In this document: one piece after another, positions 4,169 through 9,267 of the stretch
How positions within the stretch are numbered: the first letter of the stretch is position 1
Layout of the letters: the number at the start of each line of letters is the position of its first letter
IMG/VR virus record: IMGVR_UViG_2548876794_000003
Location: 64,001 to 128,000 of that record
DNA from: a virus
Lineage: Duplodnaviria; Caudoviricetes
Strand: one strand, 5' to 3'
DNA length: 64,000 nucleotides
The notes under the pieces: model-generated
The model's input: the letters and a program-made list of their open reading frames with translations, nothing else
Told to the model about the DNA's origin: nothing
The model's database searches: none
Translations under genes and position numbers: made by a program

Positions 4169-4609
4169 ATGCCGGCATTAGGTTCTATCCTTCGATCCGC
4201 TTCTGGGTTCAACAAATTCAAGAACTCAAATAAAGGTCGAATGGTCAGCATAGGTCTTAGTGGATTAGGTTTTGTCCATGAATACAATGAAAATCGCGCA
4301 GAAGGCGATGGTGTTGCAAAGTCTGCCGTAAAAGGTGCGGGTAATGCATTCATTATGGATGCTGTCGGGATGCCTGTGTACTTTGGTGCTATGGCGTTAG
4401 GTGGAGCTGTAAAAGGTGGCGGCGCAATCGCTTCAAGTGTTGCACGAACATCAAGAGAGATGGCGCGTAGCAATCAAGCATTTGCGACGTCAACGTTCGT
4501 TGATACTCAACAAGCCTACACGATGCGACAAGCAGGTATGCAACAAGTGCAATCATCCGAAATGAATACAAAACGGGCATTACTCGGTAATGAAGCGAGG
4601 TATATGTAG
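4169..4609 (+). CDS. Gly-rich protein with C-terminal TMRQAGM motif (paralog A)
   Basis: SD AAGGAGG; C-terminus aligns with the next gene. Confidence 0.65.
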   Translation: MPALGSILRSASGFNKFKNSNKGRMVSIGLSGLGFVHEYNENRAEGDGVAKSAVKGAGNAFIMDAVGMPVYFGAMALGGAVKGGGAIASSVARTSREMARSNQAFATSTFVDTQQAYTMRQAGMQQVQSSEMNTKRALLGNEARYM

Positions 4610-5020
4610 ATGAATATTTCGCCCTCTGTATTACGTTCGTTCAAAAAGACAGGAGCACTAGTAACTGCTGGCGCAACGATATTGGATTATGGCATCAATA
4701 AAGCACAAGGTAAGTCGACAATGGAAGCGGCAGGAAGCGCAGCGGGAACAGCTGTAATGTCTCATTTTTTACCATGGTACGCTACGTTTGCTTTGCAAGC
4801 ACATCCTTTATTAAAAGGGGCAGTAGGAGAAAGTGTAAGAGAAGTAGACATGAAGTCACGCGACTTTGCGCGAAACAATCAAGCATTTTCTAACTCTTAC
4901 TTCTCTGATAACTCTCAAACGTTTACGATGCGACAAGCAGGTATGGCCTCAATTGAGCGAGCGAAATATAATCAGCAGAATGCCATGTTAGGTAGCGAAG
5001 CAAAATATATGAACTATTAA
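4610..5020 (+). CDS. protein with C-terminal TMRQAGM motif (paralog B)
   Basis: NQAF...D..Q..TMRQAGM...N....LG.EA.YM shared with 4169-4609. Confidence 0.65.
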   Translation: MNISPSVLRSFKKTGALVTAGATILDYGINKAQGKSTMEAAGSAAGTAVMSHFLPWYATFALQAHPLLKGAVGESVREVDMKSRDFARNNQAFSNSYFSDNSQTFTMRQAGMASIERAKYNQQNAMLGSEAKYMNY

Positions 5021-6004: not shown

Positions 6005-9000
6005 ATGCCGAAGAATAAATTATCCGCTATCGAAGTAGAACGATTTAAAGAGATTATGGCAAACCCTGTAATGTGGGCTCGTGCATTCATTCGCACCTTC
6101 AATCCGAAGACGAAAAAGCATGAACCTTGGGTAGCCCGCTGGTATCAAGCAGAAATCTTACTAGATGAATCGGTCAAAAAGGTTGCTAGGTGTGGACGCC
6201 GTACGGGTAAACATTTGCTCTTCATTTGTGAATTGCTGGAAGGTCCAACTCCCTTGGAAGAATCAGCAGCCATGTCCTATAGAAATAGGAAGGGTTCAGA
6301 GACTACGAGCGCAAATGTTTTAATACAACACGAGAGAGGTTATGCCACATGAAATTTGTAGCAGAACGAAAAATCGAAAATCGCGTACTATCAGTAAACA
6401 TTAAATTTGATAGCTACGGTGAAGGCGACTTAACAGATGAACAGGAAAAAGCGTTGGTTAGCGCATTCGGCAATCCTGTCATCTCAGTAGGTGGCGAGTT
6501 TAAAGCGAAGTTTGACGAGAAAGGTCAATTCGTAGAAGATCCAGAAGCAATCGGTGAAGAAGTATCGTTCATTATCGTTAATAAGACGGCAGAGCTTGGC
6601 GAGAATTTCGTAGCGTCATATTCTATTGGGTTAGATAAAGCAGCTGCATACATTAATGAAAAATCTCTATTAAAAGAGGATTACTTACAAGCCGTAGCTC
6701 GCTGTGAGCTTTTCGAAAAAACTATCCAAGATCGCGCGGTTGCCGCAGCTGATAAGTTACAAGCAAAATCAACTGCATTCACAACTGGCTACCCACGCGA
6801 TTTCTTTGCATAAGGAGGACGGATCATGCAACTAAAATACACAAGTAGTATTCGTAAACGCATTATCTGCTTAAATGTAGAGACGACAAACTTCACTACA
6901 AACGAGCGAATCGCCTTAGAAGAATTAGGCGAGCCAGTCATTGAAATGGAGAAAATGTTCAAAGGTAAATATCCTGTGCAATTTTCTAAAACAATTCGTA
7001 CTGGCTTGAAGTTAGCTATCCGCTTCGATGGTCGTGAAAATATTGAAGAAGCATCGCAAGCCGCAAATGAATTTGTAGAGGAATTAGGCGAACTAATCCG
7101 TACAAAAATGAGCGACCTTATGGAAACATACGATGATGTCAATTTTATTTTTGACCGTAAGAATGGATTAACTACCCTATAGATTGTATTAAAAAAGATA
7201 TAGTCCGCCCCTGTTTTTAACAGGGTAGCGAAAACAGAGACCATGTGCGTAAATGGTCTTTACAAGGGGTCCACCCAACCAAACCAACGTATTCTGTATG
7301 TTACGCCATACGAGACGCAAGTACGTTTAATCTTTATGCGTCTAAACGAAATGATTGACGGTAGCCCGCTTCTACAAGAGCAAGTTGCTCGTCGTATCAA
7401 AAACCCATTCATGATTGAATTTAAAAATGGCTCTGCTATCATGGGCTTCACGACAGGTGCTTCGTCTGGTACAGGCGGTGCTTCTATTCGTGGCCAACGT
7501 GCCGATTATATTCACATGGATGAAGTGGATTAACCATATAGTCCACTATAAATAGGGTGAATTGCTGGAAGGTTTGGTGTAAAATCTGCATCAGAATAAT
7601 CAGCAGCCATGCTGTTAGGAGGTTTTATTATGGGAGAACTTATTTTCCTAAATGAACATAATGAAGTAAAAGAAGCGATTGAACACGACAAACAGGACAT
7701 GTTGAATATGCTAGACACAATCCAAAAAGTAGTAGAGGATGGCGAAGCTGTCTCTTTATACATTGGATGTGCGCTAACAGACAATACAAGTATAAGCTGG
7801 TCATCTGGACGTTTTAATTATAACCAACGCGCCAGACTAATTAGTGAATTACATGATGAACAATGTGCTCATGCTTTAGATTTACTTGATGACTAACGGA
7901 GGGTTCAGAGACTATTAATAGCGCCCTACATAGATGATATAGTCCGAAGTGAAAACGTATATGACCGAAGCTGACTTTGATACCGTAACAACAATTGCCG
8001 CTGAACGTAGCGACATCGGTATCTTCTTGTCATCTACTCCAACAGGTGCTCGCTCTAAGTTCTATCAAGCGTGTACCGATAAATCAATGGGCTTCACTGA
8101 ACATTTCCATCCATCAAGCCATAACCCGAACTGGGATGCCACGATGGAAGCTCAATTCAGAGCTCAACTTACGCCGTCTGGTTACACGCATGAAATCGAA
8201 GCAGATTTCGGCGCGCAAGATACCGGTGTATTCAACAAAGATAAGGTCGATAAAGCAATGTCATTCCAAAACTATTACTACAATCCGCTATCTGTTATCC
8301 AGTTGGATCGCGTGAAGCGTGAAGCGGAGAATGGGACCCCGACACCAATTAACAGAGTGTACGATGGTATACCTGTGCCACGAAATACATTCCGTACGAT
8401 GGGCGTCGACTGGGATAAATACCAAGCATCAAGTAGTATATTGATAATGGACTATGACATTGAATCGAAAAAATTCATTGTTGTTAAACGTATTGAAGTA
8501 CCGAAAGCGGAGTATTCATACGATGCAGCAGTTAATTTGATTGTTGAACTAAACGAAATATATAATCCGACATGGATCTACTGTGACCGCGGATCAGGCG
8601 AGTATCAAATAGAACGTCTACATATTATTGGGGAAGAACGTCCAGAGACGGGCCTTAAACATAAAGTGAAGGGCTGGCAGTTTGCTAACAAAATTGACGT
8701 AATGGACCCAGTTACAAAAGAGATGGTTAAAGAGCCAATGAAACCATTCATGGTTAACCAATTGATTATGGCCTTCGAGCGTGAGCAATTGATTCTTTCT
8801 CCATTCGATGAAATCTTACATAAGCAATTAATCGACTATGAAGTAGTGCGCCAGCAACAAAATGGTGCGCCAATTTTCACTTCTGAAAATGAACACTTTG
8901 TCGATACATTAGGTTTGGCTTTCCTTGCATTCGTACTCGAATTTACGGAGCTTACCAATACAATCAAAAAAGTTCGATATGAAATGGCGATGTCATCTAT

Positions 9001-9217
9001 ACAAAAACGCCCTGGTCAAAAACGTGTAGAAACATCGTTACGCCAAGCAGCCGCAAGTGAAACAAGCTTTAGTCAACAAATTGAAGCGGCACACCATGAC
9101 GGCGACCTACCAGGGGATCGTCCTACATGGACGCAAGTACGAAATTCTTCTCGTCGACGCTCTAACGGACGCGGTTGGGGGAGTCGTACAGGCGGCGCAA
9201 CAAGAACTGTTTGGTAA
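6005..9217 (+). CDS. terL: terminase large subunit, spliced: join(6005..6208,7231..7530,7958..9217), 587 aa
   Basis: Joining restores Walker A CGRRTG|KTETM and Walker B YIHMDEVD|YM. Also Q motif RWYQ, SIRGQRAD, coupling motif SSTP, and RNase H-like nuclease MGVDW...HFVD. Confidence 0.92.
6349..6813 (+). CDS. intron-encoded protein 1, function unknown, no homing-endonuclease motif seen
   Basis: 154 aa, SD GAGAGG, acidic; no LAGLIDADG, GIY-YIG or HNH motif. Confidence 0.8.
   Translation: MKFVAERKIENRVLSVNIKFDSYGEGDLTDEQEKALVSAFGNPVISVGGEFKAKFDEKGQFVEDPEAIGEEVSFIIVNKTAELGENFVASYSIGLDKAAAYINEKSLLKEDYLQAVARCELFEKTIQDRAVAAADKLQAKSTAFTTGYPRDFFA
6826..7182 (+). CDS. intron-encoded protein 2, probable distant paralog of 6349-6813
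   Basis: 118 aa, SD AAGGAGG; shares the pattern I..R....N...E.....G.PVI.....FK.K. Confidence 0.8.
   Translation: MQLKYTSSIRKRIICLNVETTNFTTNERIALEELGEPVIEMEKMFKGKYPVQFSKTIRTGLKLAIRFDGRENIEEASQAANEFVEELGELIRTKMSDLMETYDDVNFIFDRKNGLTTL
7531..7957 (+). mobile_element. group I intron 2 in terL (427 nt), ORF in the P6a loop
   Basis: P1 AGUGGAU/GUCCACU with U7530-G7541. P10 CAUAUA (7535-7540) pairs with exon UAUAUG (7958-7963). P3 7553-7559/7922-7928. P, Q, R, S elements present. P6a 7612-7618/7893-7899; terminal G7957. Confidence 0.93.
7630..7896 (+). CDS. intron-encoded small acidic protein (88 aa), function unknown
   Basis: SD AGGAGG 7617-7622, ATG 7630; no endonuclease motif. Confidence 0.75.
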   Translation: MGELIFLNEHNEVKEAIEHDKQDMLNMLDTIQKVVEDGEAVSLYIGCALTDNTSISWSSGRFNYNQRARLISELHDEQCAHALDLLDD

Positions 9218-9231
9218 AAATATAGCCTTTT

Positions 9232-9267
9232 TATCCTCTTAGCTGTAAAATGCTAAGGGGATTTTTC
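9232..9267 (+). terminator. intrinsic terminator after terL
   Basis: ATCCTCTTAGC-tgtaaaat-GCTAAGGGGAT followed by TTTT. Confidence 0.6.

Follow-up and report, generated by a model that had tools for sequence, protein, structure and literature searches.

To our knowledge, the group I introns of bacteria and phages are regarded as ribozymes with either no cargo or a homing endonuclease. What, then, is the standing of an intron in a phage terminase gene that carries two intact open reading frames (ORFs), neither resembling such a nuclease? The question arises in a 64,000-nucleotide (nt) stretch, here called the window, that spans bases 64001-128000 of a 178,960-bp phage record in IMG/VR (IMGVR_UViG_2548876794_000003), where the large terminase gene terL is interrupted within its Walker-A motif. 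An original prediction described the interruption as a group I intron whose cargo consists of ordinary phage genes. Comparison with relatives, gathered through the two ORF families and through TerL exon 3, makes it quite likely that the P8 loop of an endonuclease-less, widely shared terL group I intron houses two resident phage genes, ORF1 and ORF2.

A group I intron in the P-loop of terL

The structure of terL becomes visible when the window is searched by tblastn with the uninterrupted 547-amino-acid (aa) TerL of Moorella phage MTATph1. This homolog, with 46% identity, aligns in three collinear pieces that mark three exons split by two introns (Table 1). Joining T6208 to A7231 restores the Walker-A P-loop GRRTG|KTETM, collinear with the intron-less TerL proteins of MTATph1 and of the relative L015, and joining 7530 to 7958 restores DEVD|YMTE. 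In L015, the three exons are contiguous (L015:6415-8157). The locus lies in a head and packaging module that comprises terL, a 613-aa protein, portal, protease and major head protein.

Intron 1 has the parts of a group I ribozyme. Its 5' core half matches the Rfam model RF00028 over model positions 49-158, from P3 to P3', with 34.3 bits (E 1.8e-6; gathering score 50), and the J8/7-P7-P9 segment at about 7195-7225 aligns weakly to the same model, with 15 bits. At the 5' splice site, U6208 forms a U·G wobble with G6217 within P1. The stem P8 is formed by TTTTAATACAA and TTGTATTAAAA in 11 perfect pairs and closes a loop of exactly 855 nt, just as first described. ORF1 and ORF2, both intact and both acidic, fill this loop, and each is preceded by its own Shine-Dalgarno sequence, GAGAGG and AAGGAGG, respectively.

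Comparative analysis shows that this structure is maintained. RNAalifold, run on seven lineages, finds the U·G splice-site pair in all seven, one fully compensated P1 pair, and two to three double compensatory changes per pair in P6. P1 pairs are compensated in L055 and L039, and synonymous exon changes in these two lineages are matched by the guide sequence: in most lineages, GCTC or GCCC is the partner of the exon sequence ACGGGT, and in L039 GCCTGT is the partner of ACAGGT. Compensatory changes distinguish L004 from the window in P3, P5, P6, P8 and P9. All ten lineages with cargo in the intron share the same core motifs, namely AATTGC..GG, AATC(A/C)GCAGC, (G)TTCAGAGACTA and GATAGTCC. The P8 stem that brackets the cargo ORFs is present in 10 of 10, in unrelated sequence, and its 3' arm starts between -6 and +2 nt from the last stop codon in nine of them. 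From the covariation and the P8 stems of differing sequence, it follows that the ribozyme is under structural selection and that the cargo always sits in P8. The restored P-loop, the partial RF00028 match, the U·G pair and the compensated P1 and P6 together support the identification of intron 1 as a group I intron, for which guanosine-dependent self-splicing is predicted.

The same genes inside and outside the intron

Ten diverged lineages (the window, L004, L019, L021, L024, L039, L048, L049, L055 and L056) carry the intron at the identical site, after the GGT of the P-loop glycine codon, with cargo nested in P8. This nested arrangement is present in about 20 independent assemblies and is not a product of chance. 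L004, reached from a 64%-identical ORF1 relative, has the intron and cargo layout of the window, and the nested intron of L055 holds an ORF2-like gene only.

Other relatives carry the same genes without the intron. In L015 and L025, terL is uninterrupted and orthologs of ORF1 and ORF2 lie directly upstream, followed by a hairpin and then by terL's own ribosome-binding site; identity there is 37% for ORF1 (E 1e-21) and 47% for ORF2 (E 1e-30). A free-standing pair next to an intron-less terL occurs in at least seven lineages (L015/L025, L030, L047, L035/36/38, L052, L053 and L072), and L031 shows the free-standing arrangement with one gene only. Homologs of the cargo therefore exist in both of the states that the original prediction had considered, nested in at least ten lineages and free-standing in at least seven.

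The nested order runs from upstream genes through exon 1, the 5' intron core, ORF1, ORF2 and the 3' intron core to exon 2. The free-standing order consists of upstream genes, ORF1, ORF2, usually a hairpin, and an intron-less terL. Judged by gene order, ORF1 and ORF2 are the last two genes of the operon preceding terL in this phage clade. In L073, the pair stands at the end of the upstream block, and the genes after it are NUDIX and dCMP deaminase genes rather than terL, which suggests that the pair belongs functionally to the upstream operon.

Sequence evolution indicates that both genes are maintained. Both ORFs are under purifying selection, with proportions of nonsynonymous differences (pN) of 0.25-0.35, proportions of synonymous differences (pS) of 0.62-0.69, and nonsynonymous to synonymous rate ratios (dN/dS) of 0.15-0.35; ORF1 compared with L004 gives a dN/dS of 0.15. 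The cargo frames stay intact across lineages of 25-65% protein identity, and an exhaustive HMMER search assigns to the ORF1 family 77 clusters of stand-alone relatives of about 150 aa. The view of the cargo as ordinary phage genes, with no recognisable homing endonuclease among them, is supported at the level of sequence comparison by free-standing orthologs of 37-47% identity upstream of intron-less terL and by a cargo tree that follows the TerL tree.

History of the nested arrangement

Nested and free-standing states are intermixed in a TerL tree built from exons 2 and 3, and its well-supported branches force at least four changes between them. A tree of concatenated ORF1 and ORF2 is broadly congruent with the TerL tree; both group L039 with L030 and L047, and L035 with L049 and L056. 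In approximately unbiased (AU) tests, the hypothesis that all nested lineages form one clade is rejected for TerL and for the cargo alike (p 2e-61 and 7e-75). This rejection, taken with the congruence of the trees, indicates that the cargo does not behave as a separate mobile lineage and tracks the phage lineage. L024 is placed by its cargo with the window clade and by its TerL with L015, and looks like a mosaic from homologous exchange. An exon 1 tree, bearing on whether this exon tracks the arrangement, gave no resolution because exon 1 is too short.

That both the site and the position of the cargo are identical speaks for a single origin of the nested form. Given one origin, the scatter on the trees would need either repeated rearrangement or a prolonged period in which both arrangements coexisted and co-infecting phages swapped cargo and terL segments by homologous exchange. 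No relics of exon 1 or of the intron were found in loci of the free-standing state.

The cargo proteins

ORF1 and ORF2 encode acidic proteins with isoelectric points (pI) of 4.70 and 5.13 and no histidine, and the absence of recognisable homing-endonuclease motifs, noted at the outset, holds up in wider searches. No nuclease or other family in Pfam, PHROG or the PDB sequences gave a meaningful score for ORF1, ORF2, 54 ORF1 relatives or 15 ORF2 relatives. Because neither protein contains histidine, HNH and His-Cys box chemistry is excluded. Pfam and PHROG give no match to the LAGLIDADG, GIY-YIG, PD-(D/E)xK, EDxHD or Vsr-like families, and no such fold is among the matches of the ORF2 model. Invariant residues are few, only M1, G24 and E33 in the ORF1 family and only M1, E27, G35, P37, F83 and M95 in the ORF2 family. 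A conserved set of catalytic residues is present in neither.

The AlphaFold model of ORF2, with a predicted local distance difference test score (pLDDT) of 79, contains two strands, a helix, three strands and a 45-residue helix. Searches with Foldseek against PDB and BFVD, with VIA-align wide, and in the ESM Atlas returned no match strong enough to assign it to a fold family, and there was no nuclease-like fold match. The best PDB match is a mitoribosomal protein (Z 6.6), and the best Atlas match is a cluster of 158-aa viral hypothetical proteins with a template modelling (TM) score of 0.74, to which ORF1 also points. The model weakly resembles secretion-chaperone, CapZ and Rpb11-like alpha/beta sandwiches, which serve as leads only.

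The two proteins are related to each other. BLASTP links them at E 1e-3 and hhalign at E 7.7e-5 over the first 54 residues, the order of secondary-structure elements is the same in both, and the iterative profiles of the two merge. On these comparisons, ORF1 and ORF2 are distant paralogs, both small acidic alpha/beta proteins. No further paralog of either was found in the 179-kb genome. The ORF1-family profile has no match in the MTATph1 and vB_BceM_WH1 genomes, and neither the region nor the two ORFs match any of 50,697 phage records by megablast or tblastn. Our best guess is that the pair is a non-enzymatic assembly or chaperone-type pair of the upstream gene block.

A proposed mechanism

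No promoter or terminator match was found between the gene upstream of exon 1 and the terminator-like hairpin after terL, so the interval from that upstream gene through the end of terL would form one transcript. The Shine-Dalgarno site of each ORF would drive its translation, either on the precursor RNA or on the intron after excision. In the original prediction, the proteins made in this way would be abundant and TerL would stay scarce. TerL could be made only once the 5' and 3' core halves meet across the 855-nt loop. Its output would then be gated by splicing, at a point where intron-less relatives possess a hairpin and a separate ribosome-binding site. The last stop codon abuts P8, and translation and ribozyme folding would therefore compete on each RNA molecule; on any one molecule, the two are probably mutually exclusive.

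A more ambitious model joins four proposals, and as a whole it is doubtful. First, the cargo may anchor the intron: an endonuclease-less intron would escape loss, since its precise deletion would take two useful phage genes with it. Second, the intron may shield the P-loop site of terL from the LAGLIDADG nuclease of the intein, which in related phages targets the neighbouring codon boundary. Third, splicing may act as a gate which, in competition with cargo translation across P8, determines in what ratio to the upstream operon, or at what time relative to it, TerL is made. Fourth, the repeated switches between nested and free-standing states may reflect a path, taken more than once, along which self-splicing introns take up resident genes from their neighbourhood.

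Several points weigh against the view that the intron is a ribozyme housing resident phage genes. The RF00028 score of intron 1 lies below the gathering cut-off, and no Rfam family reaches its gathering threshold anywhere in the window; the low score is explained by the 855-nt P8 insert, which splits the model. Some relatives, one 100%-complete genome among them, lack the ORF pair, which is therefore not universally required. Among about 60 loci there are no intermediates, that is, neither an ORF-less intron at the G|K site nor duplicated cargo, and no route between the nested and free-standing states was found. The patchy distribution of the states is also what a mobile element would be expected to show. 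The structure model of ORF1, built from two sequences, is unusable at a pLDDT of 37, and the fold assignment of this protein rests on secondary structure and on its paralogy to ORF2. Finally, splicing and cargo translation are both inferred from sequence alone.

Alternative roles for the pair

A different function for the same two genes is conceivable if improbable: they might be the missing small terminase (TerS) or another packaging accessory of TerL, with nesting coupling their expression. The pair does lie immediately before terL, where terS is classically found, in a module of terL, portal, protease and major head protein, and no other terS candidate was recognised. However, neither protein matches a terminase small-subunit family, and the ORF2 model contains no helix-turn-helix. 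A terminator-like hairpin often separates the pair from terL, the L073 pair precedes NUDIX and dCMP deaminase genes instead, and related complete genomes lack the pair.

It is highly improbable that ORF1 and ORF2 form a new, possibly two-subunit, homing endonuclease or mobility factor, for which the free-standing and nested states would be two stages of an endonuclease-gene-invasion pathway. Such a pathway has a precedent, as invasion of introns by neighbouring free-standing endonuclease genes is described in phages (PMC3984707). The genes do alternate between a position adjacent to terL and one inside its intron, patchily on the tree, and the intron family is polymorphic between near-identical phages (the window and L023). 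Yet the proteins are acidic and histidine-free, match no nuclease family or fold, and lack a conserved catalytic set. The cargo tree follows phage lineages rather than the nested state, and the L073 pair is not beside terL. Furthermore, the intron-less terL next to free-standing copies has P-loop DNA that nearly equals the spliced site, so that a nuclease aimed there would cut its own genome.

Slimmer still is the chance that the pair acts as maturase-like splicing cofactors that help an intron with an 855-nt P8 loop to fold. Orthologs are under selection in at least seven lineages that lack a terL intron at this site, same-family introns without any ORF occur in the same gene (L023 and L004), and acidic proteins are poorly suited to RNA binding. 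These observations outweigh the demanding long-range closure of P8, the stop codon that abuts it, and the fact that, of the 11 contexts examined, 10 have the pair next to terL or within its intron (the context of L074 is unclear). A new splicing or mobility factor, the alternative raised in the original prediction, is thus unlikely, since the pair is under purifying selection in intron-less phages, is acidic and without histidine, and has no conserved catalytic set. The last possibility, that the ORFs are untranslated relics or chance frames in a large intron loop, is close to refuted by conservation, given the intact frames across 25-65% protein identity, the far smaller number of nonsynonymous than synonymous differences, the Shine-Dalgarno sites on both genes and the family of 77 clusters.

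Comparison with known systems

Reviews of phage introns and a recent survey describe endonuclease cargo or none (PMC3984707, PMC3073962, PMC11878797), and literature searches revealed no phage group I intron with resident genes other than nucleases. The natural comparators are phage introns with a homing-endonuclease ORF, such as T4 td with I-TevI, the SPO1 DNA polymerase intron with I-HmuI in P8, and the terL introns of Bastillevirinae with VSR/HNH ORFs (PMC11878797). Like these, the intron reading considered here places a group I ribozyme in a conserved catalytic motif of an essential DNA-metabolism gene, with ORFs in a peripheral loop that have their own ribosome-binding sites and an end that abuts or overlaps P8 (PMC3073962). 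Unlike them, the terL intron carries two non-nuclease paralogs with free-standing orthologs in intron-less relatives, encodes no endonuclease, and the phylogeny of its cargo agrees with that of the host phage.

The nearest precedent is rps3, which lies in the mL2449 group I intron of fungal mitochondrial rnl (PMC5626475). There, too, the loop of a group I intron has long housed an ordinary host gene rather than a mobility gene. That system involves an rRNA gene of an organelle and one cargo gene whose function is known, whereas the terL intron interrupts a phage protein-coding gene and contains two genes, and close lineages differ in whether these genes are nested or free-standing.

Collaborative (trans) homing and endonuclease-gene invasion (Zeng, Bonocora and Shub 2009, reviewed in PMC3984707) offer a further parallel, since a gene lies next to the intron in some genomes and inside it in others. 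The insertion site is also targeted by another selfish element, here a LAGLIDADG intein at the next codon boundary (L026, L057). The difference is that the genes relocated in the terL case have no nuclease feature and that their free-standing form adjoins an uninterrupted target site.

This system provides a conserved, multi-lineage case of an intron with ordinary phage genes, together with natural "before and after" genomes for comparison. It is also a tractable setting for studying ribozyme folding across a translated 855-nt loop. Two questions can be asked with it: whether cargo stabilises an intron that has no mobility gene of its own, and whether splicing is used to meter an essential packaging ATPase. 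On the practical side, gene callers fragment such terL genes and mislabel the nested genes.

Other introns and inteins in terL

Intron 2 belongs to the same family as intron 1, with which it shares the P4 16-mer GTGAATTGCTGGAAGG. The window lineage and L004 (35% identity) are the only ones in which the 88-aa ORF of its P6 loop was found. This ORF gives a weak, sub-threshold Pfam match to Phage_BR0599 (E 5e-4) and is no recognisable nuclease.

A LAGLIDADG intein interrupts TerL between the P-loop Lys and Thr codons (GK|C...HN|T) in two lineages, the L026 group and the L057 group. Its boundary lies 3 nt from the site of intron 1, which means that intron and intein compete for one motif. The TerL of Bacillus phage vB_BceM_WH1 (L003:1312-4236) is annotated with 974 aa, about twice the usual length, and probably contains one or more inteins, as in the L026 group.

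Further insertions occur elsewhere in the gene. L023, with an exon 3 that is 100% identical to that of the window, has a 244-nt ORF-less intron at a VDWD|K motif (L023:485-728). The comparison of these two phages shows that endonuclease-less introns are gained or lost between near-identical phages. L004 carries two ORF-less introns of the same family in exon 3, at the VDWD|K motif and near residue 215 (L004:6563-6730 and 6917-7243). L019 and L020 have identical TerL exons, and L019 has at the exon 2/exon 3 junction an insertion with a 298-aa LAGLIDADG ORF (L019:6173-7069). Presence or absence of a LAGLIDADG insertion, as in this pair, is a classical polymorphism.

Feature coordinates and neighbouring genes

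Table 1. Features of the interrupted terL locus in the window, in order of position, and intein-containing terL genes of relatives.
Feature	Position	Strand	Description
terL exon 1	6005..6208	+	68 codons, ending ...GRRTG; MTATph1 tblastn
P1	6205..6220	+	6205-6210 (exon end and first intron bases) pair with internal guide sequence 6215-6220
Group I intron 1	6209..7230	+	1022 nt; between Walker-A Gly and Lys codons; 5' splice site after U6208
Intron 1 core, 5' half	6223..6317	+	P3, P4, P5, P6, P7 5' strand, P3'; RF00028
P8 5' arm	6318..6328	+	TTTTAATACAA
ORF1	6349..6813	+	154 aa, pI 4.70, no His; GAGAGG upstream (Shine-Dalgarno)
ORF2	6826..7182	+	118 aa, pI 5.13, no His; AAGGAGG upstream (Shine-Dalgarno)
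P8 3' arm	7184..7194	+	TTGTATTAAAA; begins 1 nt past ORF2 stop codon
Intron 1 3' end	7195..7230	+	J8/7, P7 3' strand (GATATAGTCC), P9 hairpin, terminal G7230
terL exon 2	7231..7530	+	KTETM ... DEVD; MTATph1 tblastn
Group I intron 2	7531..7957	+	427 nt; same intron family as intron 1
Intron 2 ORF	7630-7896	+	88 aa, acidic, pI 4.4; in P6 loop
terL exon 3	7958..9217	+	Nuclease/C-terminal part; MTATph1 tblastn piece
Terminator-like hairpin after terL	9233-9262
TerL with intein	L026:4270-7275; L057:4360-7158

In the window, the exon 1 frame stays open across the whole 5' intron core, and its TGA stop overlaps the ORF1 start (ATGA, 6349-6352). Translational coupling through this overlap was considered and dropped, because the overlap is not conserved in L004, L019, L021 or L055; it is probably lineage-specific. 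Relatives occur in two Bacillota metagenome-assembled genomes and among phages of Bacillus and Moorella, and these suggest a host in the Bacillota.

Two groups of proteins upstream of terL also stand out. Those encoded at 4169-4609 and 4610-5020 of the window, and at L026:2323-3486 and L055:3056-3484, share a conserved C-terminal motif, approximately F..(S/D)..Q.(Y/F)TMRQAGM ... (L/M)G(N/S)EA(R/K)Y(M/L), on proteins of differing length and in distant relatives. No family matches these proteins, and the motif may be a targeting or cleavage signal. In several relatives, a protein of about 230-245 aa that resembles the ATPase segment of TerL exon 2 is encoded a few kb upstream of terL (L015:1722-2417, L026:3528-4253 and L047:4088-4348), and in L026 it lies directly upstream.

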